Below, one piece after another: positions 4,185-49,843 of a stretch of DNA of 64,000 nt. The position numbers and the translations under genes were made by a program. The stretch is from Eubacteriales bacterium (GTDB taxonomy: Bacteria > Bacillota > Clostridia > Oscillospirales > CAG-272). A model generated the notes under the pieces. The model saw nothing but the letters and a program-made list of their open reading frames with translations. It had not been told where the DNA came from and searched no databases. Positions within the stretch are counted from its first letter, which is position 1; each line of letters opens with the position of its first letter. The stretch spans positions 33,476 through 97,475 of the forward strand of contig JAZQXT010000047.1 of NCBI GenBank assembly GCA_045633005.1, written 5' to 3'.

Positions 4185-5435
4185 TTAATAAGGATATTTA
4201 TTTACTATGCCGTGAAGCTGTGCGGGGATCTCCGTTCCGATGATGCAAATAGCGTCGCACCATCTGTGAAAGAGCTTTTCGTAAAGCGATGCGTCATCGT
4301 CAAGGATGAGCATTGCCGCCGTATAATTCACAGCCGCGCTGACAAAACGGTCGCAAAGAGGAAATTCGCTGTCAAGCGATATTTCCATAACGTCGTAGGG
4401 CGGCTGGTCGGGAAGCCCGTACGCTTTGCGGTAGAGCTGATCAAGCCTTGAAGCCTCGCTAACGAGCGCGGCAAAAATGTAGGGGGCGCGCTCGGTATAG
4501 TCCTCCATTATGGAATCCATATACGCCTTTTTTGCCGCCTCGCTCCTTTCGGGGAAAAGCTCCACGCCCGAGGTCTCGGTTATCTTTACGGTCGATATCT
4601 CCGCCTCGACGCCGCTTTCGGCGCTCGTATCGCTTTCATTCGAGGACGACGTGGTCGTACTGCGCTCACTCTCGCCCGCCGTGCTTGCCGTCTTTTCCAG
4701 CGTGTTGGTTTTGGTGCTTTCGCCAGACGAAACCGTATCCTTGGTGTGGGCAGAGGTCTCTTCACTCTCATCGTGAGTCTCTATGCTCTCACTATTTGTA
4801 TCCGTGAAGTTTTCCGTAACGGTAACCAGCCTGTCATCCGTTTTTTCAACGTCCGCCTCGGAAGTGCCCGTCGTATTAATAGTTGCGCTTACGTCCTCGG
4901 CAATAGTGGTAATAAGCCTTTCGGTAGTAGCGGTAACGTTTTCCGCCGAGGTAGGGATCTCGCTTATGTAAAGCTCGTCGGTATTTTCCGCATCCTTGCC
5001 TCGCGTTTCCGTGGTTTTCTCGCTCGTTTTACCGGTTTTCGATTCCTCAATTGTGGTTTTATCGGTGCTGGAGCTGGTATGCGAGCGTGTATCGTTCTCC
5101 GTGTCGCTCTTTGTTCCGTCTGCCGTTGAGCTGCGAGTTTTCTCGCCGCTGACGTTTTCCGTAGAGCTTGTCGTCGAGCTTACGTTGTTCGTCGAGCTTT
5201 CGTTATTGCTCTCGCTCGTCGTTTCGTTAGCGGTAACCGTCTCGTTTTCGGAGCCGCTTATGCTCTGCGTTTTGGTTTCATTGCGGGTTTCCGTCTTGGT
5301 CTCGGTGACTTTCGTGGTCTTTGCCGCAAGACTCGCCGCCGCCGTCGTCGCCCTGACCATAGAATCGGTATCGGCGGCTATCTTGGCTCTGATGACCAGA
5401 CTTACGGCTCTGTCGAATATTCGGCTGACTAACAT
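4185..5435 (-). CDS. Putative head-completion/adaptor protein with ~250-aa Ser/Thr/Glu-rich insert
   Basis: Directly downstream of the capsid gene, GGGAGG RBS; helical-looking termini around a T/S/E-rich region. Confidence 0.55.
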   Translation of the reverse strand: MLVSRIFDRAVSLVIRAKIAADTDSMVRATTAAASLAAKTTKVTETKTETRNETKTQSISGSENETVTANETTSESNNESSTNNVSSTTSSTENVSGEKTRSSTADGTKSDTENDTRSHTSSSTDKTTIEESKTGKTSEKTTETRGKDAENTDELYISEIPTSAENVTATTERLITTIAEDVSATINTTGTSEADVEKTDDRLVTVTENFTDTNSESIETHDESEETSAHTKDTVSSGESTKTNTLEKTASTAGESERSTTTSSSNESDTSAESGVEAEISTVKITETSGVELFPERSEAAKKAYMDSIMEDYTERAPYIFAALVSEASRLDQLYRKAYGLPDQPPYDVMEISLDSEFPLCDRFVSAAVNYTAAMLILDDDASLYEKLFHRWCDAICIIGTEIPAQLHGIVNKYPY

Positions 5436-5452
5436 CTATTCCTCCCGAATAA

Positions 5453-6271
5453 TCAGTTTATGGTGAGGTCGAGAAGTACCATCTCGGAGGGGTAAATTAC
5501 CTTTGCGCCGTAGAGGTGCAGACCCTTGACGGCATCCGCAAATCGCTTTTCGGGGCGGTACGCATCCACTTCGCTGAGCTGCTCGGCAAAGGCGATGGCA
5601 CGCTTGGTGCGTGCAAGGCACTTGTGTGCGCCGTCCGCTACGGCGACGTTGTTGGAAACGTAGATCTTACAGCCCGCAACGTTGCCGATACAACCCGTTT
5701 CAAGGGTGCTGTCGCTGTTGCTGATAGCGATCTTGGACTTGAGGATGAGCGCCGCAACTGCGGGGGAGACCTCGACAACGATATCGGCGGGATCGCTTAC
5801 GTTATTCTGAAGGAGCTTTGTACGAGCATCGATGATGTGCTCGATGATGTTATCAACGGTAGCCGCCTGCTCGGTAATAACGGAGCCAGCCTCGCCAAAG
5901 AGCGAGAAAACGTACTTATCCGCCTCGTTAGCGAGTGCGGACGCGGCGACCTTCATAGCGCCCGTCATAAGCTTGGGGGAGGACTGAACTCTGTCGATGT
6001 CGTCGATCTGGAAGTTGAACGCCTTCGCCTGATCGATAACGAGAGTCTTGGAAAAATCGGTAAGCTCCTCTGCAAGAAGCTCGAAATCCGTGTTTTTGTT
6101 GTAATCGAAAACCGTAACGTCGGTAAGTCCGCAGATCTTTACTCTGTCGCCCTTGCCCTTGATCTCGCCCTCGAAATCGCGGTTGCAGTTTGCTACCGCT
6201 ACGTACTGATTGTCAAGTGCGGTGAGAAGATTTTCGCTCCATACGGTAGAGATAAAATTAGTAATTGCCAT
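5453..6271 (-). CDS. Phage major capsid protein (P22 coat-like, HK97 fold)
   Basis: MAITNFISTVWSENLL, NRDFEGEI..KGDRVKI, LVIDQAKAFNFQIDDID, FADAVKGLHLYGAKV; follows scaffold. Confidence 0.85.
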   Translation of the reverse strand: MAITNFISTVWSENLLTALDNQYVAVANCNRDFEGEIKGKGDRVKICGLTDVTVFDYNKNTDFELLAEELTDFSKTLVIDQAKAFNFQIDDIDRVQSSPKLMTGAMKVAASALANEADKYVFSLFGEAGSVITEQAATVDNIIEHIIDARTKLLQNNVSDPADIVVEVSPAVAALILKSKIAISNSDSTLETGCIGNVAGCKIYVSNNVAVADGAHKCLARTKRAIAFAEQLSEVDAYRPEKRFADAVKGLHLYGAKVIYPSEMVLLDLTIN

Positions 6272-6309
6272 TGTTTTTTTCCTTTCTTTTTGTGGGCTTT
6301 GCCCTTTTT

Positions 6310-6834
6310 TTATTTCCAGCGGCGCATAGATTCCATAATGCGCCCGTAGTTTTCGCGCACCTCACGGCGCGACATTCCCCTGACCTCGTCAGGAGTGAAA
6401 AGACCGTCGTCGACGGTGCTTATTTTGCCGACCGAGGTTTTCTCAGCCGACCTTCTTGCCGCCTCTGCACGCTTTGCCCTGACCTCGCGCCGACGCATTT
6501 CAAGCGCGTAAGCGGCGGCAGGCGGCACGCCCTGCCTTACTGCCTCGTTGAAGCTGTCGGGCATGGAGCTGAGCTGTGCCGACGGATAAAGGTCCATAAG
6601 CTCTGCGTACCCCTCGGCAAATCTCTCTGCCTCGGCGCGAAGCCTTTCGACCTCACAGCGAAGTGCTTTAAGCTCCTCCATCTCGGCGCTGAAATCACTT
6701 GTCACCGCTTCCTCATCGGGTGCGGCTTCTTGTGCTACCTCTTCCTCGACCTCTTCGATTTCAAACGGAATTTCTTCGATCTCCTCGGTGGACTCTTCGG
6801 TGAGCACAAGCTCCTCTACTATCTCATCAAGCAT
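6310..6834 (-). CDS. Putative capsid scaffolding protein
   Basis: Acidic N-terminus, coiled coil, C-terminal FTPDEVRGMS..EVRENY..IMESMRRW; between portal and capsid; start 6834 with AGGAGG overlapping the portal stop. Confidence 0.7.
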   Translation of the reverse strand: MLDEIVEELVLTEESTEEIEEIPFEIEEVEEEVAQEAAPDEEAVTSDFSAEMEELKALRCEVERLRAEAERFAEGYAELMDLYPSAQLSSMPDSFNEAVRQGVPPAAAYALEMRRREVRAKRAEAARRSAEKTSVGKISTVDDGLFTPDEVRGMSRREVRENYGRIMESMRRWK

Positions 6835-8374
6835 CTTCGCCCTCCTTTTCTCTTGCCGCAAGCAAGCCGTATCTGTCGGGCACAAGCCCGTCGGGGAGAC
6901 GTTCAAGATACTCGCGAAGGGAAATATGCCCCTCTTTCAAAAGATTGTCGAGTATTGTCTGCGTTCCCGACACCGAGAAGCGCGAGGAATCCGAAACGTC
7001 GATCTTCGCGTGGAGCATTGCACCGCGAAGCAGATCCGTTCTTATTTTTTCAGCTCCGTTTTTCGTGTGCAAAAGGCTGCCGTCAAGGCAATAGCCGCAG
7101 GTCATATCCGCCCAGATGTTCGCCATCTGCTCAAGGCAGATATTAAGCTCGGAACGCACGCGCTCAAGTGCCTGCATCGAGCTTTCGCGAAGCGCAAGAA
7201 TTGCACTCGTGTTGTTGGGGTCAACGTTTCCGAGCGCCGCCTCCGTCGCGCCCGCAAGGTCCTTGGTCATAGTGACCGCCTTTTCGATAAGCTCAAGATA
7301 TCCGTCCTCAAGCGCGCCCGTACCCACGACCTGCACCGCATCGGAAATGTTACCGCCGCCAACTGCGGCGATCGCCTCGCCGACCTGATTTGTCCATTCG
7401 GGGATCCTCGTGCGGTCGTAGATGACCTTTGAAAACGCCGTATCCGTCATATGCTTCATCACCATTGCAAACGCGCGGTTGATGTATTTCTGATTTGCTA
7501 TCATTCCGCTTACCGCGGAATTGCCGTGGAAGCAATTTTTTGCACTGCTCCACGAAAATTTTGCAAGCGGATAAAGCTTGCACGGCGTTACGCTGCGGCG
7601 GATAACGCAGTTTTTGGTGGATTTTTCAAACACCACGAAGCCGTTTTCCTTCCAGAACTTGATAAGGTAGGTAACGGGCGCGTCCTCCGGCTCGTAGTCG
7701 TATTCAACGGCGGCGAAATCGCCCGCCATCGAGTCCACGGCATCCTCGCGAGTATCGGGGGTGATCTTCATCACGCTCTCTCGCGACGCGCCGTTGGCAA
7801 GAGCCTCGGCGCGAAGATCTGCAAGACGTGCCTTGCCCGAAATAATAACGTGCGACTGCGACTGAATATCGGGGTTATTTACGTCAGCGGGAAAGACGTT
7901 TACGTTGTCTATCGCACCCGTAAATATTTCACCGCGCCACACGCCGCACCCGTCCGCATCGGCATCCCAGCCGCAGTACACGATACCGTCACCCGTGAGC
8001 GCCGCATCGGTCAAAAGACGGTAGACAAGGGCTTGGAGCTTGTCGCGCTCCCACCTGTACGCCGCGTTTTCGGTAAGCATCCTTACGCCGTCGGCTATTG
8101 CCGCCGCCTCGGATGCAGACTCGGAAAACGGTAGATTTTCATCGGTATACGTTATCCTTATGTCCCCGACGGCGGCGGTGGAAATAAGGTTGTCGGTTAT
8201 GCGGCGAATAACGTTGAATACGGGACGGGGAAGGTCGCCGCTGCCACCCCGCCATTGATCTCCGCGATAAAACCTTTCGTTTTCGCGAACGGTTTCGTAA
8301 AGACCGATCTTTTGCTTATATTTACGGCCCGCCTCATACTGACGCCAAGCCTTTGATAAGCTGTTCTTGTTCAT
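6827..8374 (-). CDS. Phage portal protein (P22-like)
   Basis: NERFYRGDQW, RPVFNVIRR, DAALTGDG, NTSAILAL motifs; follows terminase. Confidence 0.8.
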   Translation of the reverse strand: MNKNSLSKAWRQYEAGRKYKQKIGLYETVRENERFYRGDQWRGGSGDLPRPVFNVIRRITDNLISTAAVGDIRITYTDENLPFSESASEAAAIADGVRMLTENAAYRWERDKLQALVYRLLTDAALTGDGIVYCGWDADADGCGVWRGEIFTGAIDNVNVFPADVNNPDIQSQSHVIISGKARLADLRAEALANGASRESVMKITPDTREDAVDSMAGDFAAVEYDYEPEDAPVTYLIKFWKENGFVVFEKSTKNCVIRRSVTPCKLYPLAKFSWSSAKNCFHGNSAVSGMIANQKYINRAFAMVMKHMTDTAFSKVIYDRTRIPEWTNQVGEAIAAVGGGNISDAVQVVGTGALEDGYLELIEKAVTMTKDLAGATEAALGNVDPNNTSAILALRESSMQALERVRSELNICLEQMANIWADMTCGYCLDGSLLHTKNGAEKIRTDLLRGAMLHAKIDVSDSSRFSVSGTQTILDNLLKEGHISLREYLERLPDGLVPDRYGLLAAREKEGEDA

Positions 8375-8435
8375 TTTTCACCTTCTGTTTTCAGATTTTT
8401 TGCGAAGGACTACTGCACAGACGAAGTTTGTCGGT

Positions 8436-9758
8436 TTAGCCGAAAATGTAGTCCTCCGCAGAGCTTTTTCCAAAGCGGAAGCCGCGCGCATTTTGCAGAT
8501 CGTCGGGCGGCTGAGCGCGACTCATAAGCGCATAGCGCACAGCTTCGGGAGAATGCGTAAAGCGGTGCGGCTCACCCGCCGCGTCCTCGGGGCGATTTTT
8601 GTCGAAAAGAAGCGCAGGTATCGAGCTTATCAGCTCCTTGCAATCGCGGCTTATATGAAGCCTCACCTCGCCCTTCTCGTTCTCGGCAAGGTATTCCCTG
8701 AAAAGCCGCCAGCCCGCCACGCGTCTGTCGTCCGCGGGGCGCATAGGTGGCATACCGTATGTGTTTTGCATCACCTCAAAACCGCTTTTGCCCGTATCCT
8801 GCCGTCTGTTCCAAAGGTCGGGCGAGGCTACGGCGTATTCCACGTTCTCGCCTCGGCAAAGCTCGCTTACCGCCCTTGCCGCCTCGGACAGCGTAAGCCC
8901 CGAGCGGCAATACTCGCGCTTTATCCAAACACAGCCGTCTCGGTCAAATCCGCAGATATACGCCGCAAGCATGTCAAAGCCGTAGTCAAACGCCGCTATC
9001 GTTATCGGCGTCCGTGGGATAACGTTTGGCTCGCACACGTGGCGTTCCTCGTCAAATTCCGAGAAGAACTGACCTTCGAAAACGTCCCATTTGCCGTAGA
9101 GCCACGCATCGCGCAGTCGCGGCGGTAGGCTCTCAAGCCGTGAGACGTATTCGGGGTCGGCGGCGGTCAGACTTGCGTTGTCAAAAACCGTCGCGGGAAT
9201 AAAGGCGTAGTCCTCGGCGCGCTCGCCTGCTCGGTAGTCGCGGTCGATAAAGAGCCGCTTTACCCAGCCGTGCCCGATGCCGCCGGGATTGCAGGTAAGA
9301 TACATCCTTCGCGGCATATCCGTCGCTCCGCGAAGGCAAGCCTTAAAGATGGAAAACTGATATTCGCTAAGCTGAGTCGCCTCGTCGATAGCGATAACGT
9401 CGTATTCCTGACCTTGATAGCGCAGAGTATCGCGCTCCGAGGAGCAATAACCGAGGAAGAGCTTACTGCCGTTTTGAAAGAGGACGCATTTGTCGCGCTC
9501 GGAGTAGCTTACCGCATCGCCAAGCTCGGCAAGAAGCCTGTAGAGGTGATTGGAGCGAAGCTCGGGCAAGCTTCGGCGCACTAAAAGCGCCTTAAGCCCG
9601 CCGTAGCGCAAGCACATAAGCACCACCTTGCGCCTGAGCGCCCACGACTTTCCGCCGCCGCGCGCTCCGCCGTACGCCGTAAATTTTGCACGCGAGGCAA
9701 AAAACTCCCTTTGCCTTTCGGCAGGTACACCGCTTACTCTTATTTCCGCCTCTGCCAT
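8436..9758 (-). CDS. terL: Phage terminase large subunit
   Basis: Walker A YGGARGGGKS, Walker B IAIDEATQ, TCNPGGIGHGWVK, nuclease FDYG. Confidence 0.93.
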   Translation of the reverse strand: MAEAEIRVSGVPAERQREFFASRAKFTAYGGARGGGKSWALRRKVVLMCLRYGGLKALLVRRSLPELRSNHLYRLLAELGDAVSYSERDKCVLFQNGSKLFLGYCSSERDTLRYQGQEYDVIAIDEATQLSEYQFSIFKACLRGATDMPRRMYLTCNPGGIGHGWVKRLFIDRDYRAGERAEDYAFIPATVFDNASLTAADPEYVSRLESLPPRLRDAWLYGKWDVFEGQFFSEFDEERHVCEPNVIPRTPITIAAFDYGFDMLAAYICGFDRDGCVWIKREYCRSGLTLSEAARAVSELCRGENVEYAVASPDLWNRRQDTGKSGFEVMQNTYGMPPMRPADDRRVAGWRLFREYLAENEKGEVRLHISRDCKELISSIPALLFDKNRPEDAAGEPHRFTHSPEAVRYALMSRAQPPDDLQNARGFRFGKSSAEDYIFG

Positions 9759-10136
9759 TTACTCGCCGTCGGCATACGGGTCGTGTTCAAAAACGAGCCG
9801 CACACCCGCCGCCTCCTCCTCCCTTTCGGGCGCTCGCTCGCCTACGTAGCCAAGCCTTTGCTTCAAGTAGACCGACAGCACCGAGGAGGACATTTTTGAG
9901 TTTATCGCCTCATCCTCAAGAGCCGCGCATATCTCGCCGTAAAGCGACGGACGGCTCTCCCGAAGGCTTGCTATATCGCTCATGCTTCCGCCGAAATATC
10001 GGCAAAAGCCCGCAAGATTAGGAATTCTTTCCTTTTCCGCGCAATAGTCGATATACGAGGCAAAAAGGTGTGACAGCTCGTCCTTTTCTATGCTTTCGGC
10101 AAGGAGATTTTTTTCTTTTTGGTTTGCCGTGTTCAT
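9759..10136 (-). CDS. terS: Terminase small subunit (P22 gp3-like DNA-packaging protein)
   Basis: IPNLAGFCRYFG and VYLKQRLGY signatures; stop abuts terL start; start codon uncertain. Confidence 0.7.
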   Translation of the reverse strand: MNTANQKEKNLLAESIEKDELSHLFASYIDYCAEKERIPNLAGFCRYFGGSMSDIASLRESRPSLYGEICAALEDEAINSKMSSSVLSVYLKQRLGYVGERAPEREEEAAGVRLVFEHDPYADGE

Positions 10137-10316
10137 CCTTTTTTCAGTCGTGCCGATCCTCTCTTTCCCGTCTGTGCAATGGAATTTTATCGCGCTTCGG
10201 GGTCTCAAAGGCTGTAGAGTGTCGCCCACAGTCTCAAAAGCTCATAAAAAAACGGCAAAGCTATTGAAAAAACGCGTATAATCGGATATAATTTATAAAA
10301 ACGAAGGAGGTCGGAT

Positions 10317-19416: not shown

Positions 19417-19791
19417 TCAATACCGCTCGTTATACCTGAGCTTGCGCCACAGAGCGCGCGCCTCACGCAGACGGCGGTAGAGCGTCCGCTCGTCGCAGTG
19501 AAGCTCGCCCGCAACGCAAATGACGCGATATGTAAGCTCGTTTGGCATAAGCTTCATTTCGGGCGCGAAGAAATACACCCTGCGCGCCGCCTCCGCCGTA
19601 TCGCACTTGCCCGCGGCTTCAAGAAAGCGCAAGGTCTCCCACACGGCAAAAAGGTCAAGGACTACGCCCTCCGAGCCCGCCCTTTTTACGCGCCGCAAAA
19701 GCGAGAGCGGCTCTTTTTCCTTATCGAGTCCGAGCCGCGCGAATCTCCTGAACGCGCGTATCTCCTCCTCTTTTCTTCTGTCTACCGACAT
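19417..19791 (-). CDS. RinA/ArpU-like transcriptional regulator (C-terminal HTH)
   Basis: 124 aa; VAGELHCDERTLYRRLREA sigma-region-4-like HTH; GGAGGTG RBS. Confidence 0.6.
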   Translation of the reverse strand: MSVDRRKEEEIRAFRRFARLGLDKEKEPLSLLRRVKRAGSEGVVLDLFAVWETLRFLEAAGKCDTAEAARRVYFFAPEMKLMPNELTYRVICVAGELHCDERTLYRRLREARALWRKLRYNERY

Positions 19792-19806
19792 TTTCACCTC
19801 CAAAAC

Positions 19807-19851
19807 AGAACATTTGTTCTATATTATAGCATAAAAAAAGAAGCTTGTCAA
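19807..19851 (-). promoter_or_regulatory. Sigma-A promoter with LexA (SOS) box over the predicted TSS
   Basis: TTGACA(19851-19846)-17nt-TATAAT(19828-19823), then AGAAC-AAAT-GTTCT (19820-19807) matching GAAC-N4-GTTC. Confidence 0.85.
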
Positions 19852-19934
19852 TATAAAAAGTAAAAACAAAAATCAAGCAAAGAAAAAACACGATCCACCT
19901 CCCTCTCCCCGCGCTCTCCCCATAAATCAACGTT

Positions 19935-19959
19935 GCCCCCGACCGAAACGGTCGGGGGC
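19935..19959 (-). terminator. Terminator hairpin
   Basis: GCCCCCGACCG-AAA-CGGTCGGGGGC after the LRR gene. Confidence 0.7.
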
Positions 19960-19967
19960 GAAATTGA

Positions 19968-22112
19968 TTATTGATTTTGTTCGGGTTCTGCGGGTTTAGC
20001 GCTGATGTGGGTAAGGTATCCGGGCTTGCCGTCCTTACCGTCAACTATAGCATATTCTTTATCGGTTTTGGTGGAATCAAATGTCGTATTGTTGCCACCC
20101 ACCAAGCTATTGCATCTGGCAAACATTTCTCTGGACGAATTTTCGTAATTTGTTCCAATGTTGGTTTCTGGGATATTCGACATATCCCAATTATCGCCTA
20201 CATAGATCTTGGTCAATTTACAAGGGCGAGTTGTTACGTTAGTATCCTGCGCAAACATCCTTAGCGCCAGCAACACGTTTCTCGTATCAAACGACGAAAG
20301 ATCCAATTCTTTCAGGCTGGAGCATCTGTAAAACATTTCATACATAGTGTTGACATTGCTCGTATCCCAAGTGTTCAGACCTATGATCTCCTCAAGCAAA
20401 CCGCAGTTTTCAAACACCTGCGCCATATTAACTACCTTTTGGGTGTTAAAGCTGGAAAGGTCGATTGTTTTAAGAACAGTACAATCATTAAACATACCGT
20501 CAATGTTCTCAAGGCTCGCGGTGTTCCAACCGTCAAAATTTATTTTTTCTAACCTGTAACAATCGGCAAACATATGGTACATAGTAGTAACCTTGTCTAC
20601 CTCAAGTCCGCTAAGATCCAGTTCTTTCAGATAACCGCATCCGTAGAACATAGACTGCATATTGGTAAGGCTGAGAGTTTCCCAATTGCTAACGTTAATA
20701 GATAGCAAGCCTTGGTCGCCTTTGTTGGCTTTTGCAGCAGAAATAAAGCTTTGAAAAGTGGTGACCTTACGAACATCCCAATTGTCAACTGCCAACGTGG
20801 TAAGTCCCCTGCATATGCTGAACGTTCGTTCCATGTCCGTTACGTTTCCAACGTTCCAAGAACCAACAGCAAGCTCTGTAAGACTACAGCAATTATAAAA
20901 CGTACGGTTCATAGTATTAACGTTACTAACGTCCCATTCCGATACATCCAGATCAACGAGCGCTGAACAGTTATTGAACATACTCGCCATCGTTTCCGTG
21001 CGGCTCAACTTCAAATTAGTTGTACCAACCTTTTTCAAAGCAGTCATATTCATAAACAGCTCGTTGCTGTTCTTAGGCGTATATATCGCACTGTCAGCAA
21101 GGACGTAGATATCGTAGTTTGCGGCGTTGTCGGCATTGGGAAGATAGTAAGTATAAACTACCGCATCCTGCTCGACGCTCGTGAGAGTGCCCGCGTAGCC
21201 TTCGACCTTGTCAGCGTAGTCTTTGTTAAAACCAAACGTTATGTTTGCCACCTTGTCGGTGATAAGAGCATCGGCATTTCCATTAAGATTATGAAGCGCA
21301 GTTTTCAAGTCAATACCAACCACAAGCGTGAGGTTTGCGAAGGGGAAATCACTACCAAATCCCTCATCAAGCGCAGTTTCGGGATCTTTAAAGCCCGTGG
21401 ACTGGATAGCCTGAGTCCTTACAAGAACCTTATAATCGTTTCCAAAAGCATCTACCTCTTCGTTGGTAGCGTAGGAATCAAGCGCGATCTGCGAAAGGCT
21501 TATTTCCGTAACAGCTTCAGGCACTAACTCTATCTGATAGGTAGCCTTTGCGATAAAATACGTTTCGCCGTTGATTTCGGCAAGGCGCGGCTCCCACTCC
21601 CATTTCCACTGTTTTTCATCGTCATTCAGATTTATGTGTATCTTATCTTGGAACTCGTTAAAATCCGTATAGCTTCCCGCCTCAAACGCGAAGAAAACTC
21701 GGACGTATGCACCGTAGTCGCCGTTATTTCTTACGAAAACCATCTTATCAACTTCGTTGTTGATCTTCGCAGGGTCCCAAATGGGAGAGGTATAACCCGC
21801 CTTGATAGCATTTCCTTCGTTATCGTGGTCCCACTTAACGTGAGCGTTATCCTGCTCGCTAAAGGAGTAGTCAAACTCGCCATTGATGACTGCGGGAATC
21901 AGGGGCTTGTAATCCTCAAAATTCTTAACTATCTTATCAGCATCCTTCTGCTCGGTATCCACACGCTCATACTCCAGCAGCTCAATATCGACCTTGCCAA
22001 CGGTCATTATGTTTTCAGCTGACGCATCATCCTTAAGATACGCGATAGTGCCGAGGACGGATGCTACTGCAATCAGCGCAAGCGCTAAAACCCATGCTAA
22101 TATTTTTTTCAT
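19968..22112 (-). CDS. BspA/DUF285-type LRR surface protein with SipW-class signal peptide (copy 1)
   Basis: GTIAYLKD signal; repeated WDVSNVNTM..MF-type LRR units. Confidence 0.85.
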   Translation of the reverse strand: MKKILAWVLALALIAVASVLGTIAYLKDDASAENIMTVGKVDIELLEYERVDTEQKDADKIVKNFEDYKPLIPAVINGEFDYSFSEQDNAHVKWDHDNEGNAIKAGYTSPIWDPAKINNEVDKMVFVRNNGDYGAYVRVFFAFEAGSYTDFNEFQDKIHINLNDDEKQWKWEWEPRLAEINGETYFIAKATYQIELVPEAVTEISLSQIALDSYATNEEVDAFGNDYKVLVRTQAIQSTGFKDPETALDEGFGSDFPFANLTLVVGIDLKTALHNLNGNADALITDKVANITFGFNKDYADKVEGYAGTLTSVEQDAVVYTYYLPNADNAANYDIYVLADSAIYTPKNSNELFMNMTALKKVGTTNLKLSRTETMASMFNNCSALVDLDVSEWDVSNVNTMNRTFYNCCSLTELAVGSWNVGNVTDMERTFSICRGLTTLAVDNWDVRKVTTFQSFISAAKANKGDQGLLSINVSNWETLSLTNMQSMFYGCGYLKELDLSGLEVDKVTTMYHMFADCYRLEKINFDGWNTASLENIDGMFNDCTVLKTIDLSSFNTQKVVNMAQVFENCGLLEEIIGLNTWDTSNVNTMYEMFYRCSSLKELDLSSFDTRNVLLALRMFAQDTNVTTRPCKLTKIYVGDNWDMSNIPETNIGTNYENSSREMFARCNSLVGGNNTTFDSTKTDKEYAIVDGKDGKPGYLTHISAKPAEPEQNQ

Positions 22113-22160
22113 AACTTTTTCCTTTGGTTCATTTTATATTAAGCGATAAATATTTCTTCA

Positions 22161-22183
22161 CCCCCGACCGTTTCGGTCGGGGG
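22161..22183 (-). terminator. Terminator hairpin between the LRR paralogs
   Basis: CCCCCGACCG-TTT-CGGTCGGGGG, same stem as 19935-19959. Confidence 0.65.
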
Positions 22184-22192
22184 CAAAAATGA

Positions 22193-24388
22193 TTATTGAT
22201 TCTGATTCTGTTCGGGGTCTGCGGTTTTAGCGCTGATGTGGGTAAAGTATCCGGGCACGGCGGGGGTGTCGCCGATAGCGGGCACGTCGATGCGGGCGTA
22301 TTCTTTATTGGTCTTTTCGGAATCAAATACCGTACCTGCGCCACCTACCAAGCTGGTGCAATTAGTAAATAAACCAGTTGAATCTCCGGGAGGGATACCC
22401 TTCCAACCGTCGCCGACGTAAACGGTCTTGAGGTTCGGGCACTTATAGAATGCATAATTCGTAGCATGCACCTGTTCGGAGTTCATTCCGCTCAGGTTGA
22501 CCTCCACCAAGTTCGTACAATTGGTAAACATATACGCCAAGGATACGGTTTTACCGGGGGCGGGATTAAAGCCGCGCAGATCAAGCTTTGTCAAGTTTAC
22601 GCAGCCCGAGAACATTCCAAAAAATGCTTTAGCCGCGGATTGAGATATATCATATGCGCTTGAGGTAACCCACTTGGAGAAGTCAAGATTAGCTATTTTC
22701 ATTTCATAAACATTATCTACGCCCGCATACGCATCGTATCCTGCAAGGAAACGCTCAAACGTCTCAACCTTGCGCACGTCCCAATTGCTTATATCCAAAT
22801 ATTCAAGTTCCAAGCAACCACCGAACATCGTTTTCATATTGGTTACGTTGCTCGTATCCCACTTGGAAACATCCAAATTGTTAATAACGTAGTCGTTTGC
22901 GAACATTCCATACATATCGGTGACGGCGGAGGTGTTCCAGTTCGAAACGTCTACTGTCTCCAGCGCATAGCAGTTACTAAAGGTCATGCGAAGATTTTGA
23001 ACGTTACTGATGTTCCACTTGCTTACGTCCAAATTATTTATCGCATTACACTTGTTGAAGGTTCTGTAAAGCAAAGTAACCTTACTAACGTCCCAGTTTG
23101 TAAGATTCAAGGTCTTAAGGCAATTGCAATCCTCAAACGTTTGCTGCAAGTTTGTTACATTGGAAGTATCCCAATTTGTAGTATCCATAGCCTGCATACG
23201 GTAGCACCTATAGAACATACGGTACATATTGGTAGTCTTGCTTACGTCCAAGTTTTCTGTATTAACGTTGATCAGCCAATCCATAGTCGCAAAAAGGTTG
23301 CTACTGTCAGCAGGGGTATAAATAGGACCGTCGGCGAGGACGTAAAGGTCGTACATCGGTACTTCCTTTACTACGTTACCGTCCGCATCCGTTTCCGTTC
23401 TGATGTCGGGGACGTAGTAGGTCTTGACCTGCGACTCCTGATCAACGTTGGTGTGCACGCCCTCGTAGCCATTAACGATAGAGAGATAGTCCTTGTTTTT
23501 GCCAAATGTTACGCTATCGACCGAGGAGGTTATCTTGGTTCCATTAGCATCGCCGTTCAGATAATGCAGCGCGGTATAAAGGTTTACACCTTCAATGTAA
23601 ATGTTGTCAAACGGGAAATCTTCGCCAAAGCCTTCGCTCAAAGCCTCGTCGGGAGTCTTGAAGCCCGCGGACTGAATGCCCTGCGCGTTTACGAAGACCT
23701 CGTAGGTATCGCCAAATGCCGCCACCTGTTCGTTGGTTGCAGTGGAATCAAGCGCGATCTGCGAAAGAGTTATATCGGTAAAGTCGCCGGGCAACAGCTC
23801 TTTTTTATAAGTAGCATTTGCGATGAAATACTTTCCGCCTTGGGAATTGGTGGCAAGAACCTTCTCCCATTCCCACTCCCAATCACCTGTTTCGTTCAGG
23901 TTCAGGTGGATCATTTTACGGAATTCATCAAAATCGGTGAACGCGCCCGCCTCAAACGCAAAATAGATGCGAACGTACGCGCCGTAATCGCCCTTATTTT
24001 TAAGGAAGACCATCTTATCAACTTCGTTGTTGATCTTCGCAGGGTCCCAGATGGGCGAGGTATAGCCGTCATCGTCGTTCTGCTGCTGCCACTTAACGGC
24101 ATCCTGCGTCCAATCGACGTAAGTATCGCCGGGAGTGTAATCAAAGCCTTTTTCGATAACGGCGGGGAGCAAGGGCTTGTTATCGTGGAACTCCTGCACC
24201 TTTGCATCCGCGTCCTTAGTCTCGGTATCGATACGCTCGTACTCGAGCAGTTCGATGTCAACGTTACCGATGGTCATAACGTTAGTCTCGGAGTCCGTGT
24301 CCGTAAGGTACGCGATAGTTGCGGCAATGGAAATGAGAATGGTAAGAACCACAGCAACAACACCAAGAAGTATCTTTCTCTTTTTCAT
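22193..24388 (-). CDS. BspA/DUF285-type LRR surface protein with SipW-class signal peptide (copy 2)
   Basis: MKKRKILLG...ATIAYLTDTD; WDTSNVTNM repeats; start reassigned to 24388. Confidence 0.85.
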   Translation of the reverse strand: MKKRKILLGVVAVVLTILISIAATIAYLTDTDSETNVMTIGNVDIELLEYERIDTETKDADAKVQEFHDNKPLLPAVIEKGFDYTPGDTYVDWTQDAVKWQQQNDDDGYTSPIWDPAKINNEVDKMVFLKNKGDYGAYVRIYFAFEAGAFTDFDEFRKMIHLNLNETGDWEWEWEKVLATNSQGGKYFIANATYKKELLPGDFTDITLSQIALDSTATNEQVAAFGDTYEVFVNAQGIQSAGFKTPDEALSEGFGEDFPFDNIYIEGVNLYTALHYLNGDANGTKITSSVDSVTFGKNKDYLSIVNGYEGVHTNVDQESQVKTYYVPDIRTETDADGNVVKEVPMYDLYVLADGPIYTPADSSNLFATMDWLINVNTENLDVSKTTNMYRMFYRCYRMQAMDTTNWDTSNVTNLQQTFEDCNCLKTLNLTNWDVSKVTLLYRTFNKCNAINNLDVSKWNISNVQNLRMTFSNCYALETVDVSNWNTSAVTDMYGMFANDYVINNLDVSKWDTSNVTNMKTMFGGCLELEYLDISNWDVRKVETFERFLAGYDAYAGVDNVYEMKIANLDFSKWVTSSAYDISQSAAKAFFGMFSGCVNLTKLDLRGFNPAPGKTVSLAYMFTNCTNLVEVNLSGMNSEQVHATNYAFYKCPNLKTVYVGDGWKGIPPGDSTGLFTNCTSLVGGAGTVFDSEKTNKEYARIDVPAIGDTPAVPGYFTHISAKTADPEQNQNQ

Positions 24389-24438
24389 GATCTTATTCCT
24401 TTCAGAATATTTATAGCGGTTTATCCAATGCGATAAAA

Positions 24439-24664
24439 ACATAATTCGCATTATGTTGCACAGGATACACCTATACAGATAAATTTTAACATGTAAATTC
24501 TAAAAAGTCAACAGTTCTTCATAAAAAACGGCACAAAAACAACACCAATGATACCGATTTTTTCATTGGCTTTGTTTTTGCGCCCTTTTTTGGCAGATAT
24601 TAGTAGAGTCGTTGGCTATGTAGAAAATAATCTTTCCCTAAATGCAACATAATGCGAATTATGT
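24439..24664. promoter_or_regulatory. Invertible promoter segment bounded by 22-bp inverted repeats
   Basis: ACATAATTCGCATTATGTTGCA (24439-24460) and its exact reverse complement (24643-24664); internal TTGACT-17-TAAAAT promoter faces the LRR gene. Confidence 0.85.
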
Positions 24665-44647: not shown

Positions 44648-45169
44648 TTACCCTGCCCTTCGCGCGCGTGTTACGGTAGGAACAAACGGGCTTGAGGCTA
44701 TCGTTTTCGCCATTTGCTCCATCGCGTCACAGCGGACGGCTTCCGCGCGCGAGATTGGGGCGGTCGCGGTCGGCTCGAATATGCGTCTGCAATACGGCTC
44801 GTCAAAGCTTTGCATGGCGATATATTCTCTGTTGCCTATGCGAATGCACGGGATCCTGCCGTCCTTCACCGCGCTTCTTATGAGTTTTTCTCCGATGCCC
44901 ATCGCGGGGCGGCTTCCCTTCAGCTCTGCCGCCGCCCCTCTGATGGTGCGGATATGTGGAATGCCGCCATTCCCTTCAAAGCCGAGAAGGCGGTTGAGTG
45001 TAGGCGCGAGCGCCTCCGCATCGGCGACCAGACGGTTACCATGGTAGGTATGCAGAAGCTGCTTTGCTTCTGCCAAAGCCGTAAGAAATGACGCTCCGAC
45101 GGCTGATGAAGGATCAAGCGTTTTTATTTCTGCGATAATACTCGGGATCGTTTTTATTCTCAACCGCAC
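44648..45169 (-). CDS. Excisionase-like tandem HTH DNA-binding protein
   Basis: Two repeats (IKTIPSII.EIK..DP / IRTIRGAA.ELK..RP), IPCIRIGNR; overlaps the integrase stop. Confidence 0.7.
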   Translation of the reverse strand: MRLRIKTIPSIIAEIKTLDPSSAVGASFLTALAEAKQLLHTYHGNRLVADAEALAPTLNRLLGFEGNGGIPHIRTIRGAAAELKGSRPAMGIGEKLIRSAVKDGRIPCIRIGNREYIAMQSFDEPYCRRIFEPTATAPISRAEAVRCDAMEQMAKTIASSPFVPTVTRARRAG

Positions 45170-46386
45170 TCCTCCCTTTCTTTATTCGTTACGATATCGG
45201 CAATCAGCTCGGCGGCGCGGCGTTTGGACGTATCGTAGGGAGTGAGATATTGTTCCGTGGTGCGGATGCTCTCGTGCCCGAACACCGCCTTGACCGTTTC
45301 AAGATCCGCGCCGTTCTCCACGAGGAGCGAGCCGCAGGTGTGGCGAAGTCCGTGGAGCTTGAGGTGACGCAATCCTCGGCGCTTTTCATAATCGCTGCAC
45401 ATTTCCGTGGGAGCATAGAGGCTTATCATATCTCCGAGCTCATTCGTAAACACAAATCCCTGCTCACGCCATCTTGCCCCCGCCGCACTTCTCTGCTCGT
45501 TCTGCTCCGCTTGCCATTCCAGCATTGCCATCTTGTATATATGCGAAAAATATACGGTGCGAATGCTGTTCTGCGACTTCGGAGCTTTGAGCGCTTGAGG
45601 CTTGCCCTTCTCCTTGTACGCGCTCTTGTTTACGGAGAGGGTGCAATTCTTAAAATCAATATCCTCCCACTTGAGCGCAACCACCTCACCGCGCCTGAGT
45701 CCCATGAGAAGCGCGGTCATAAGGAGTGCGCGTGTTCTCGGCGGCTCGTCCGACAGCCCTTCCATGAACGCCGCCGCTTCATCACGGTCGTATGCCCTGA
45801 CGGGTTCTTTTTTAATTTTCGGATACCGCACGGCTCCCATGCGTAGCTTGTTTTCTTCAACGAAGCCCATACGGTGCGCCTCGGTCATCAGAGAGGAAAA
45901 AACCGTGGCGTAACGCTTAACGGTCGATGCCGCGAGCGGCTTGACGTTACTCTTATCCGCACGCGCTTCGGGCGTGGTGAGGTAATCTATCAACGCCTGC
46001 TGATGCCTTGCCGTTATATCGGTCAAGCGTATTTTGCCGAAGGACGGGACTATAATATCCTCAATAACGGAGCGATAAAACGTCAGCGTGTTGGGGGAGA
46101 GATGTCCCTTTACGCTTTTGAAATAATGCTCTGCGGCAAAGGTGCCTACCGTCATTCCAAAGGGATCGACGGTATTTTCACCGCGCTTGCCGTGAACGTA
46201 TAGCCCGTTATGCACCGATGCCTCGAACAGCTTTGCAAATTCTTTGACTCCGCGCTGTGTTTCGCGTTCGGTAAAATCCTTCGGAGGCTTGTAGGTTGCT
46301 GATATAAGCTCCTGCTTGCCGTCCTTGCATCCATTGGATACTCTGACGCAATACGTGCCGTTCTTACGGCGATAGTATGATGCCAT
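45160..46386 (-). CDS. int: Tyrosine integrase (Tn916/ICEBs1-like)
   Basis: N-terminal arm-binding domain; GLRRGEVVALKW, HGLRHT, FGHESIRTTEQY. Confidence 0.93.
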   Translation of the reverse strand: MASYYRRKNGTYCVRVSNGCKDGKQELISATYKPPKDFTERETQRGVKEFAKLFEASVHNGLYVHGKRGENTVDPFGMTVGTFAAEHYFKSVKGHLSPNTLTFYRSVIEDIIVPSFGKIRLTDITARHQQALIDYLTTPEARADKSNVKPLAASTVKRYATVFSSLMTEAHRMGFVEENKLRMGAVRYPKIKKEPVRAYDRDEAAAFMEGLSDEPPRTRALLMTALLMGLRRGEVVALKWEDIDFKNCTLSVNKSAYKEKGKPQALKAPKSQNSIRTVYFSHIYKMAMLEWQAEQNEQRSAAGARWREQGFVFTNELGDMISLYAPTEMCSDYEKRRGLRHLKLHGLRHTCGSLLVENGADLETVKAVFGHESIRTTEQYLTPYDTSKRRAAELIADIVTNKEREECG

Positions 46387-46457
46387 TTTTTACACCTCCG
46401 TCATTAGATTAGCTCATCACGGTGGCTATTTCCACCGCCTGATGCTTTATGATAGCG

Positions 46458-47867
46458 TTACATTTTAATGCCAAAGCTTTCTTCCTCGTATTCATCCTCC
46501 GTCTGCTCGTCGCCATCGTCCGAGTCTTGGCTGATACCAAGCACGATACCGATAGCCGTACCGACAGCCGCACCAAGCGCGGAGCCCGTGTTGCGTGCTT
46601 CTCTCCGTTTCTTTTCCTCCTCGGATTCATCGCCGCTCTCAATTATACTTGCTATATCCCCAAGCCCACGCGCGCCCATAAAAGCAATACCAATATCATC
46701 GGCGCCGCCGTGAGTATGAGGCGAATGAACCATATCGCTTCGTCCCGAATGATCCTTCTGTTTATAACTCTTGAAGCTCTCTCGCTCGCGTTCCCAACCT
46801 GTTCGCTCGCTTCTTTTGCTATCTTCTTTATTTGCTCCTCTGCCGTCCGTGTCTGCTCCTGCGCCGCCTTTGCCATCGCCTCGGCGTACTTGCTCGCCTC
46901 CGCCTGCAAGCTCGCTCTTTGAGCCGTTAACTCGGCGCTCAGCGCTTCCAGACGCCTCACCATAGCCAGCAGATCGTTCCAGTCCCGCTCGCTCATCTGA
47001 ACCATTGTATTTCCCACATTCGGCTCGTGTTCGATAAGCGAGGAAGGGATATTCCTCGCCTTGAGCTTGTCCATATAGCTCTGCCCTGATCCTGAACTCA
47101 TGCTCCATATTCTCCTTTTGATATTTTTCTTCGTGCAATTTTATATCCCGCACTCGCTTTTCCGTACCGTCCTCAGCCTTCAGAATATAAGTAATATATT
47201 TTCTCTCGGGTGTCCACATCACGTCATAGCCGAGCTTTTTCATCTCGCGCAGGAACTCGCCCTTGCTTTTACAGCGCTTCATGCAATGGTCGATCGCTAC
47301 GCATAGCTGTATCTTCCAGCTGTTGCCGTTCACGGCGGCTCGGTATTCCTTGGGACTCGGGCGGAACGATTTATTTCGCGGATCGTATTTTTCAAGCACG
47401 TCAAGTCCGTGCGCCCGACAGATCTTATCGCTCAGCTCACGAAGGTCGCCAAGGAAAAATTTATTGTTGTGCAACTTCATTCCGCTTTCAAGCTCGTATG
47501 AGCATACGACCAGATGGTTGTGGATATGCTCTCTGTCTATATGAGTGGCTATCAGCACCTCACGGTTTCCAAATCCACAGGCAAGCTCCATACCTATCTC
47601 GTGTGCTTCCTTCGGCGTGATGTCCTCTCCGACCTTGAATGATTGCACGTAATGATAGAAGCGGACACCGTCGGGCTCGTGTCCGAACACCCTTTGCGTT
47701 GCAAGGAATGATTCGTTTGCCATTTCGGGAACACAATTGTAACCCGACACGTACGCAAGCCGCTCGTCCTCGTCAACCGTTTTCGACGGTTGCACACAGT
47801 AATCTATCACGCCCTTCTGCGCGCTCGGCGTTTGCTTCTTCTCGGGGATACATTCAACGATTGCCAT
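46458..47867 (-). CDS. MOBP-type relaxase
   Basis: IDYC, YHYVQSF, ATHIDREHIHNH (HUH) motifs; start reassigned to 47867. Confidence 0.9.
   Translation of the reverse strand: MAIVECIPEKKQTPSAQKGVIDYCVQPSKTVDEDERLAYVSGYNCVPEMANESFLATQRVFGHEPDGVRFYHYVQSFKVGEDITPKEAHEIGMELACGFGNREVLIATHIDREHIHNHLVVCSYELESGMKLHNNKFFLGDLRELSDKICRAHGLDVLEKYDPRNKSFRPSPKEYRAAVNGNSWKIQLCVAIDHCMKRCKSKGEFLREMKKLGYDVMWTPERKYITYILKAEDGTEKRVRDIKLHEEKYQKENMEHEFRIRAELYGQAQGEEYPFLAYRTRAECGKYNGSDERAGLERSAGYGEASGSAERRVNGSKSELAGGGEQVRRGDGKGGAGADTDGRGANKEDSKRSERTGWERERESFKSYKQKDHSGRSDMVHSPHTHGGADDIGIAFMGARGLGDIASIIESGDESEEEKKRREARNTGSALGAAVGTAIGIVLGISQDSDDGDEQTEDEYEEESFGIKM
46652..47101 (-). CDS. Overprinted MobB/MbeB-like coiled-coil + TM protein within the relaxase gene
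   Basis: Alternate frame, GGAG RBS, coiled coil and C-terminal TM helix. Confidence 0.6.
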   Translation of the reverse strand: MSSGSGQSYMDKLKARNIPSSLIEHEPNVGNTMVQMSERDWNDLLAMVRRLEALSAELTAQRASLQAEASKYAEAMAKAAQEQTRTAEEQIKKIAKEASEQVGNASERASRVINRRIIRDEAIWFIRLILTAAPMILVLLLWARVGLGI

Positions 47868-48171
47868 TGTTATTACTCCCAAGAACGAGAAGTATTTTTC
47901 TGTACACCGTCAGAAGCTCCGCAAGGTCTATCACCGTCGTTCTGCCCTGATGAGCAAGGCGTGTAAGCTGATTAAGATTGTTTCCTTGATAGCGAAGCTC
48001 CGAGTTCAGCTCGCGCAGATCGCTGTTGACAACGATCTCACCGTTCAAGCACATATCCATAACGAACTGCCGCATCGACGGTGCTACCGCCTCGTACATT
48101 CGTTCCTGTATAGCATATTTTTCTTCGGGCGTTACCCGAACCGTAATCGTTTCCGTTTGCGTTCTTCCCAA
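47854..48171 (-). CDS. mobC: MobC relaxosome accessory protein
   Basis: RHH N-terminus; LRYQGNNLNQLTR. Confidence 0.88.
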   Translation of the reverse strand: MGRTQTETITVRVTPEEKYAIQERMYEAVAPSMRQFVMDMCLNGEIVVNSDLRELNSELRYQGNNLNQLTRLAHQGRTTVIDLAELLTVYRKILLVLGSNNNGNR

Positions 48172-48253
48172 TAAATCACCTTCTCCTTCTTTTACGTTCC
48201 TTTACAAAGCAAAGTGGGTTTGGGCTTCTGCCCGATATAATGCGCTATGGCAT

Positions 48254-48293
48254 CACCGCCGACGGCGGTGGACGTCCTTGCGCTATGCTTGCC
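48254..48293. other. Putative oriT
   Basis: Inverted repeat CACCGCCG-A-CGGCGGTG and nic-like TATGCTTGCC upstream of mobC. Confidence 0.55.
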
Positions 48294-48417
48294 CCAGACG
48301 CAAAGCGTCAGGGAGTGGAAGAAAAACAAAATCACGCCCTTCTCCCGTGTCGGCGTGTCGGCAGCTTTGAGCGCGAGAGCCGCTACAGACGCTACCGACG
48401 CACCGACGCAAAATGCT

Positions 48418-49491: not shown

Positions 49492-49843
49492 TAAGGCACC
49501 TCCGTTATTTTGTTTCAATGATTTTAGTCCTCGTCCGCGCACGACTCGGACCCCTTTTTGTCGACAGCAAAATTCTACCACAGCACTTGACAAAAATCAA
49601 TAGATAATGTATACTGTCTCTATCGTTATCTATTTTGTTATCTATTTTACTTGAATTTACATTTTGTTCACAAGTGGATTTTGCAAGGCGGAGCAAGGGA
49701 TTTCGGCACGTTTGCATGCCGTGATGCAAATTTTTTCAACCGTAAAAGCAGAAAAAATATTTTTACCCGAGCAAGAGTTATACATACAAATAAAAGTTTT
49801 TTATAATTTTTTCAACTTTTTTATTTATTAAGGAGTGTTTGTT

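Follow-up and report, generated by a model that had tools for sequence, protein, structure and literature searches.

In the 64,000-nucleotide stretch of DNA analysed here (the window; Eubacteriales bacterium, contig JAZQXT010000047.1, positions 33,476 to 97,475 of the forward strand), a small gene on the minus strand, which we call REG, is read by us as a domesticated activator of the sigma region-4 type. It resembles the phage late activators of the Ltr super-family, and would be kept off by LexA and switched on by DNA damage; we assign this reading a probability of about 0.62. The direct observations from which it starts concern the promoter, its box and their conservation, the presence of a real lexA gene in the genome, the family, fold and phage position of the protein, and purifying selection on the gene.

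Promoter and LexA-type box of REG

The first-pass annotation, a model's commentary on the bare sequence, had described a 124-residue protein with a C-terminal helix-turn-helix (HTH), a perfect TTGACA-17-TATAAT promoter and a box of the AGAAC-AAAT-GTTCT type 2 bp downstream of the -10 element, and all of these features were found again (Table 1). The promoter agrees with the sigma-70 consensus at 12 of 12 positions and has a TG-extended -10. The box, AGAACAAATGTTCT, starts 2 bp past this -10, i.e., over the expected start of transcription. A GC-rich hairpin lies further upstream; read on the minus strand, it is likely the terminator of the upstream DUF285 gene and would shield the REG promoter from transcription coming from that side.

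The word of the box alone is unremarkable. Exact GAAC-N4-GTTC was counted twice in the window, with 0.9 occurrences expected, and 18 times in the 1.87-Mb genome, for which the base composition predicts about 28. What raises the box above chance is its placement in the promoter together with its conservation. A synteny scan with one genome per species gave three loci, besides that of the window, with the gene order DUF285 - REG - oxidoreductase - TIM barrel. The four syntenic loci belong to G000 (the genome of the window), G201, G202 and G203. Conservation of the box had been proposed as a check on the first-pass annotation, and all 14 bases of AGAACAAATGTTCT proved invariant in 4 of 4 loci. 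ATTGACA at the -35 is also kept in all four, the -10 is TATAAT in three and TACAAT in one, and an alignment of the upstream regions showed an unchanged block, GGAGGTGAAAATG, from the ribosome-binding site to the ATG. The sequence upstream of the -35 is largely unalignable. The REG proteins of the three other loci are 96, 72 and 60% identical to that of the window, and identity across all four falls to 57-60%, while the flanking proteins are 96-99% identical; the synonymous divergence (dS) of the four orthologues is 0.59-1.07 for REG as compared to 0.26-0.39 for the adjoining oxidoreductase.

The search was then extended to the taxonomic family, sampled by 201 genomes; 24 of these hold a REG homologue, at 26 places. 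At 7 of the 26 homologous places, in 6 of the 24 genomes (G000, G010, where it occurs twice, G181, G025, G124 and G028), an exact box occurs no more than 130 nt upstream of the start. In G010, G181, G025 and G124 the box is located between TTGACA and TATAAT and overlaps the latter. The genome of the window encodes a true lexA (contig C3; 206.7 bits, with a cut-off of 110.95), and this gene is preceded by its own box, AGAACAATTGTTTG, at 58 nt upstream.

SOS control of REG, as the first-pass annotation had it, is thus well supported by sequence comparison, and the REG promoter is likely under the control of LexA. The operator is invariant despite a dS close to 1, it recurs in distant orphan copies, and a genuine lexA with a like box is available in the genome; for these reasons repression by LexA is likely. 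Since the strong promoter holds a strictly conserved LexA-type box over its start, expression after DNA damage is likely as well. LexA would bind the box and keep the near-consensus promoter off, and DNA damage, through the RecA-stimulated self-cleavage of LexA, would set it free.

Several observations weigh against this reading. The box word is not enriched genome-wide, as the counts given above indicate, and only 6 of the 24 genomes with a REG homologue have the exact box; six orphan copies (G199, G137, G055, G023, G179 and G113) have a strong promoter with a degenerate box or none. In G000, recA and uvrB have no box even when 2 mismatches are allowed, which implies either an atypical SOS regulon in this organism or incomplete knowledge of its motif. 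The genome is, moreover, a metagenome-assembled genome (MAG) with a completeness of 84%, so that an unbinned prophage could be the true target of REG.

Two other good candidates for LexA boxes were seen in G000 outside the window (C7:10711 and C55:29850; loci L057 and L058). One is flanked by a small Zn-ribbon-like gene and by the gene of a self-cleaving repressor (XRE-HTH/S24); the other precedes an integrase fragment adjoining a Rep (REP_ORF2-G2P) gene, of the type found in small single-stranded DNA elements.

RNA-library contigs from two runs of one study cover positions 19656-19895 and 19727-19889. Because carry-over of DNA is possible, and the contigs show neither the start, nor the strand, nor induction, we take them as evidence in neither direction.

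Family, fold and phage relatives of the REG protein

The REG protein had been called RinA/ArpU-like, and this description stands as an analogy only: the protein is small, basic and sigma-region-4-like, and its phage copies occupy the position of Ltr genes. None of the RinA, ArpU, Sigma70_r4 and DUF1492 models matches it. No Pfam family, and neither RinA (TIGR01636) nor ArpU (TIGR01637), was matched by the protein at E <= 10; the ArpU model gave no match at E <= 1e-6 in the whole genome and just 3 weak matches in the 201 family genomes. Comparison with NCBIfam likewise gave no meaningful match, and a PHROG scan of REG itself returned a chance-level match, with none at E <= 0.01. When 91 aligned members of its family were compared with the models, 56 matched phrog_31049, a phage family of no known function (best E 3.5e-24), 1 matched RinA (E 0.0059) and 3 matched Sigma70_r4_2 (best E 0.0013), with DUF1492 not among the 25 families listed. 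The family is sizeable: a word-indexed search retrieved 6 close relatives of REG, and a profile search of 1.84 billion cluster representatives retrieved 254 at E <= 1e-3, of which 71 reached E <= 1e-10; almost all have 75-175 residues. Sequence searches of the Protein Data Bank (PDB) with two family profiles gave a best E of about 1, neither REG nor a homologue from a prophage matched any of 50,697 isolate phage records in tblastn, and the ESM Atlas neighbours of REG are all annotated as 'hypothetical protein'. REG belongs to a family that has no name and overlaps phrog_31049, outside RinA and ArpU.

The AlphaFold model built on the family alignment has a predicted local distance difference test score (pLDDT) of 94.9 and shows six helices with a C-terminal HTH. 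Residues from about 41 to 124 resemble region 4 of sigma-70, and two further helices are present at the N-terminus. A Foldseek search of the PDB with this model gave nothing at E <= 1e-3, the only matches being at E > 1. In an exhaustive structural alignment the top match was 2h27_D, SigmaE region 4 on -35 DNA (Z 7.7, root-mean-square deviation 2.3 A over 69 residues), followed by region 4 of SigH, AlgU, WhiG, SigL, SigF and SigA; sigma region 4 makes up almost every row with Z >= 5. For a model made of helices, Z values under 8 are middling, and we therefore describe the fold as region-4-like, without taking it to prove homology. Among viral structures, an uncharacterised Siphoviridae protein (43% identity) matched best. 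The isoelectric point (pI) is above 8.4 in 23 of the 26 family homologues, and the recognition helix, DERTxYR, is kept throughout the family, in orphan and phage copies alike.

The 25 homologous places in other genomes were inspected over about 7 kb on each side, with genes taken crudely as the longest non-overlapping frames and 137 neighbours compared with Pfam. Six places are in prophages (G116, G083, G097 twice, G035 and G122), where the copy follows early genes of the SSB/VRR-NUC type and stands directly ahead of genes for HNH, terS, TerL, portal and ClpP protease. The same boundary between early and late genes is occupied in 18 of the 18 IMG/VR contigs found with a phage-group alignment, with terS and/or TerL 0.1-2.5 kb downstream. 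Many phage copies, although not all, are followed right after the stop codon by a conserved word of the (GTC)AGTAGTG type, about 16 nt upstream of a TATACT-like -10 and hence where a -35 element would be. This word takes the forms GTCAGTAGTG, GCGAGTAGTG and GTCATTAGTAG, and a tandem TTGAGAGTAGTGG is present in four contigs. Since phage copies always stand between the replication genes and HNH/terS/TerL, the REG of the window is interpreted as an orphan, Ltr-like regulator. By this likeness, its product would bind a -35-proximal or repeat element and recruit RNA polymerase.

No phage gene adjoins REG in the window, as the first-pass annotation had stated. Two DUF285/BspA-LRR surface-protein genes are located upstream; a Gfo/Idh/MocA oxidoreductase gene and a xylose-isomerase-like TIM-barrel gene follow downstream. 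Among the 25 other places, 7 have the homologue directly upstream of, and co-directional with, an MBOAT acyltransferase gene and its conserved partner, 3 have it upstream of a YpsA/SLOG gene, and the remaining contexts are mixed. The description of REG as monocistronic was not borne out, since 3' of the gene we found only a weak 6-bp hairpin at 19295-19281 and no convincing terminator. We considered the oxidoreductase as a REG-dependent gene and rejected it, because its own promoter-like site also occurs in congeners that lack REG.

A maximum-likelihood tree of 29 homologues, rooted at the midpoint, separates (support 87/99) all prophage copies together with those of G028, G050 and G049 from 20 chromosomal copies. 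The chromosomal clade includes the REG of the window, and its sub-clades follow genera. Among the four syntenic orthologues, the ratio of nonsynonymous to synonymous divergence (dN/dS) is 0.10-0.37 for REG as compared to 0.03-0.06 for its neighbours; purifying selection acts on the gene, but less strictly than on these neighbours. Because the chromosomal copies form a clade apart from the prophage copies, REG is most likely a domesticated phage regulator on a mostly vertically inherited branch, and not debris.

Two features of the surroundings of REG deserve mention. Comparison of window 19417-24451 with L069-L071 shows REG and the two DUF285/BspA-LRR genes to be a hypervariable island, in which protein identities are 36-52% and 57-96% as against 96-99% for the flanks on the sequenced side, and the dS of REG is 2-3 times that of the adjacent oxidoreductase. 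Such divergence inside conserved flanks fits a recombining variable island and would suit a role at the phage-host interface. Moreover, a small HPr-like gene (PF00381) is located divergently upstream of REG in several genera (L027, L028, L034, L037 and L040), and in G141 (L067 7066-7302) an HPr-like gene is divergently upstream of the terS of the head and packaging module described below; this gene and the xylose-isomerase-like gene make up a loose neighbourhood common to REG and module loci.

The head and packaging module as a candidate target

The best single candidate target of REG in G000 is a phage-derived head and packaging module (Table 1), whose terS-like gene is 9.3 kb from REG, with eight non-phage genes between. 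It is singled out because its promoter region has no -35 element and contains two conserved TTTGAGAC repeats. We nevertheless consider it doubtful that the module is what REG controls.

Table 1. Features of REG and of the head and packaging module (positions in the window; aa, amino acids).
Feature	Position	Strand	Details
Regulator gene REG	19417..19791	minus	ATG at 19791; 124 aa; pI 9.75; six helices
Ribosome-binding site of REG, GGAGG	19797..19801	minus	5 nt ahead of ATG
Predicted LexA operator of REG, AGAACAAATGTTCT	19807..19820	minus	14 bp; 'at' between -10 and box
Sigma-70-type promoter of REG	19823..19851	minus	-35 TTGACA 19851-19846; 17-nt spacer; -10 TATAAT 19828-19823
GC-rich hairpin, 13-bp	19933..19961		found on the plus strand; 3' end of the upstream DUF285 gene
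Head/packaging module	4185..10136	minus	candidate regulated operon
terS-like gene	9759-10136	minus	module
TerL gene	8436-9758	minus	module
Portal gene	6827-8374	minus	module
Major capsid protein gene	5453-6271	minus	module
Gene for a 416-aa protein	4185-5435	minus	module
Module promoter region	10184..10239	minus	candidate REG target; two TTTGAGAC repeats (10239-10231 and 10209-10202), 12 nt, TAAAAT (10189-10184)

The region upstream of the module has no sigma-70-like promoter on the module strand. The TTTGAGAC repeats and TAAAAT are invariant blocks among G000, G201 and G203. At the same position other genera have 2-5 tandem 7-mers of lineage-specific sequence (TGGCAC, TGACACT, TGGTAC, TTGGCAG, TTGCGAC or ATTCATG, as against TGAGAC here). 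The direct repeats compared in L076-L104 have a period of about 10-11 bp; in the window it is 29 bp. By analogy, repeats with a -10 and no -35 are the architecture of an activator-dependent late promoter; the repeats may equally be the site recognised by TerS (pac). Tandem TTGAGAC pairs in G000 are found at the module promoter, at one site in the gyrB-gyrA spacer and at two coding sites, and they reveal no regulon. The spacer site (contig C78, about position 1252, minus strand, outside the window) reads TTGAGACT-A-TTGAGACT and is surrounded by many DnaA-box-like TGTGGAAAA and TTTTCCACA words. If the repeats were a pac signal, this tandem would be a start of packaging near an origin-like region.

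TerL of the module was detected in 125 of the 201 family genomes at E <= 1e-60, mostly in single copy, and G000 has 1 match. We collected the sequence upstream of TerL at 86 module loci, namely the 30 best TerL places and the next 56 by E-value among the places listed, for a total of 118,436 bases. These contain 30 exact GAAC-N4-GTTC boxes, as compared to 1 and 3 for two control words of the same composition and to about 1.8 expected. At least one such box is present in 26 of the 86 loci; in 3 of these 26 the only box is part of a coding N-K-C-S context in a small Cys-rich gene before terS. Many of the boxes flank or overlap a TTGACA-N17-TGGTATAAT promoter. Because of the excess over the control words, the module appears to be wired directly to LexA in many relatives.

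The small Cys-rich open reading frame was observed before terS in distant versions of the module (L127-L176); it has 74-99 residues and a CxxC...C pattern, and EHMFDF is conserved in one group. In some of them GAACAAATGTTC lies inside the frame, where it encodes N-K-C-S and always comes after a codon ending in CG. This looks like a dual constraint of coding and operator.

In its fullest form, the proposal is that DNA damage removes LexA, REG is made, and REG then acts at TTTGAGAC upstream of terS to turn the module on, being a host-wired master activator of a particle similar to a gene transfer agent (GTA). We hold this version to be tentative at best. The module promoter, with two invariant repeats and a -10 but no -35, has the arrangement described for Ltr activators (PMC3753634); the phage relatives of REG precede terS; the module is the sole terS-led operon found in G000; and all 4 syntenic REG genomes keep it, at about 13 kb where one contig holds both (G000, G201 and G203). 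To this the comparison of boxes adds a lead: the module has a LexA box at 0 of 14 loci in genomes with an orphan REG, at 24 of 70 in genomes without REG and at 2 of 2 in genomes with a prophage-type copy. Over the 86 loci this exclusivity has a hypergeometric P of 0.004, but among the closest 30 loci the figures are 0 of 13 and 2 of 17 (P = 0.31), and clade structure largely explains it; since the loci are related, it is not independent evidence. The remaining observations count against control of the module by REG. Co-occurrence, which the first-pass annotation had put forward as a check and whose absence it had named as refuting the link, is at the base rate, TerL being present in 16 of 24 genomes with REG and in 109 of 177 without. 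A probe for the faster-evolving capsid protein gave 15 of 24 and 51 of 177, a contrast due mainly to relatedness. Two genomes of the same genus, G060 and G141 (98% complete), keep the module beside the same pair of oxidoreductase and TIM-barrel genes, with TGAGACT repeats, and lack REG: in five module-bearing genomes tested, REG was absent at E <= 10 from four (G060 and three others), and G141 gave only a fragment at E 0.43 with an internal stop. Apart from this, an alternative relay under LexA was looked for in these two congeners: GAACRWWWGTTC does not occur in G060, and its two occurrences in G141 are both beside the module, one of them before a lipid-kinase-like gene. In other genera REG never adjoins the module and the two are on different contigs. 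The repeats end 11-12 nt from the -10 at the modules, while the word of the phage copies ends about 16 nt away; the DERTxYR helix is conserved family-wide, yet the module repeats vary by lineage. The exact REG box is found in just 5 of the 14 genomes with an orphan copy and the module, many genomes have neither a module box nor REG, and a function of the repeats as pac site would also account for them. A slightly more doubtful elaboration makes REG the switch of a GTA of gut Clostridia, in which the operator moved from the head operon promoter onto a captured late activator. In most of the family LexA would act directly on the promoter of a domesticated podovirus-like head operon; in the lineage of the window REG would read TTTGAGAC in place of a -35, and DNA damage would trigger particle production through LexA and then REG, a two-step relay from LexA to an Ltr-type activator.

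REG could instead act in trans, its SOS-timed expression firing the late promoters of resident or incoming phrog_31049-type phages or satellites, either as a helper or as a defence by premature expression, or it could serve an unbinned prophage. The family is largely phage-borne, orphan and phage copies share the recognition helix, REG and DUF285 are hypervariable relative to their flanks (dS 0.6-1.1 versus 0.26-0.39) as conflict with phages would lead one to expect, the MAG has a completeness of 84%, and the other LexA-box candidates of G000 precede genes of mobile-element type. We regard this as unlikely all the same: the search of G000 gave 1 family match, REG itself, and no prophage with a family member; defence-gene neighbours are absent at REG; and no precedent was found in the literature examined. 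The phage-type word AGTAGT[GA]-N15-17-TAnnnT was also tried as a finder of targets and rejected as uninformative, with 6 scattered matches in G000, none ahead of phage genes; of its two intergenic AGTAGT[GA] matches, one is before an XRE gene and the other before no clear gene. Less probable still is a local role, with REG regulating adjacent envelope or sugar genes, that is DUF285 or the Gfo/xylose-isomerase-like pair here and the MBOAT pair in other genera. The MBOAT arrangement at 7 of the 25 related loci, the 3 loci with a YpsA/SLOG gene and the missing clear terminator between REG and the oxidoreductase would agree with it. The neighbours vary between genera, however, the promoter-like site of the oxidoreductase exists also in REG-less congeners, and DUF285b has its own promoter (TTGACT-17-TAAAAT), with a terminator-like hairpin parting the DUF285 genes from REG. 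Finally, it is very improbable that REG is a decaying prophage remnant without present function and its box a relic. Its phage origin, its lack of phage neighbours and its patchy occurrence (24 of 201 genomes) are what a remnant would show, but the frame is intact with the dN/dS values given above, the promoter, operator and ribosome-binding site are invariant across loci with a dS of about 1 (one -10 base aside), and the orphan clade tracks genera.

Comparison with known regulatory systems

Xpf of Bacillus subtilis PBSX and UviA of Clostridium perfringens are damage-inducible sigma-like factors; the first serves a defective phage, and the second, inducible by UV, a bacteriocin. Their circuit logic is the one proposed here for REG: DNA damage leads to a small positive factor with sigma-like character, and this turns on a module that is phage-derived or serves killing. 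They differ from REG in being full sigma-type factors with region 2, whereas REG has only the region-4-like domain and two N-terminal helices. UviA is a sigma factor of the TcdR group (PMC10467148).

A close likeness is with the Ltr super-family of phage late activators, which comprises RinA, ArpU, LtrA/Sigma70_r4, LtrB/DUF1492 and LtrC (Quiles-Puchalt et al. 2013, PMC3753634; Ferrer et al. 2011, PMC3152322). These proteins are small (about 130 residues) and basic (pI > 8), bind a region of DNA repeats upstream of terS and activate the late operon (PMC3753634). REG, with 124 residues and a pI of 9.75, fits that description of size and charge, and its C-terminal DNA-binding part resembles sigma region 4. 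The phage genes of its family end the early cluster just before terS, and the promoter that directly follows contains a repeated or conserved word. On the other hand, none of the sequence models for the five Ltr families matches REG, whose family overlaps phrog_31049. The copy in the window is outside any phage and not beside terS, the position that the phage copies occupy, and it bears its own predicted LexA operator, while Ltr genes run under the phage cI repressor (PMC3753634, PMC3152322). Binding of DNA and activation by REG are predicted from this likeness.

Direct wiring of host LexA to phage-derived packaging genes has a parallel in SaPI operon I, the packaging operon of a phage satellite, which is repressed by LexA (Ubeda et al. 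2007, cited in PMC3152322); the head module resembles it at the 26 boxed loci among its relatives. In the window the LexA box is instead on a separate regulator gene, and helper phage and island functions are absent. The first-pass annotation had drawn an analogy to GafA, which drives the GTA of Rhodobacter capsulatus (RcGTA); LexA is needed for RcGTA production, indirectly via CckA (PMC9638019). The two systems share a host-encoded activator with sigma-like similarity in DNA binding, a domesticated phage particle and an SOS input. GafA differs in being a larger two-domain protein that acts through the omega subunit of RNA polymerase and has no sequence relation to REG; the link between REG and the module is here a candidate. 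Among gut Clostridia, GTA-like particles have been shown for FpGTA of Faecalibacterium, whose operon encodes TerS, TerL, portal, scaffold and capsid (Borodovich et al. 2026, PMC12946183); the module of the window resembles it in gene makeup, as compared by description. In the main text of that paper, as far as accessible, the words 'LexA', 'activator', 'regulator' and 'promoter' were not found (PMC12946183).

A circuit leading from DNA damage through a sigma-like positive factor to a phage-derived module is thus a known type, as Ltr, SaPI operon I and GafA/RcGTA illustrate. The novelty lies in three features found together: the family is unnamed, the copy is a chromosomal orphan, and the activator itself has a host LexA operator; no description of a LexA-boxed orphan Ltr gene was found in the open-access literature. 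Ltr-type late activators are not known outside phage genomes, in which phage repressors control them. If our reading of REG as a LexA-repressed, domesticated activator is true, a vertically kept chromosomal copy under host LexA would show bacteria rewiring phage regulatory parts into the SOS response. A boxed head operon in 26 of 86 loci, together with a LexA-boxed Ltr-like gene where the operon is boxless, would give a concrete and falsifiable model for the control of particles.

Elsewhere in the window, positions 45160-51184 encode a tyrosine integrase, a MobA/VirD2 relaxase, an AAA_25/DnaB-like protein and a DUF6076 protein, and this segment is probably an integrative mobilisable element.

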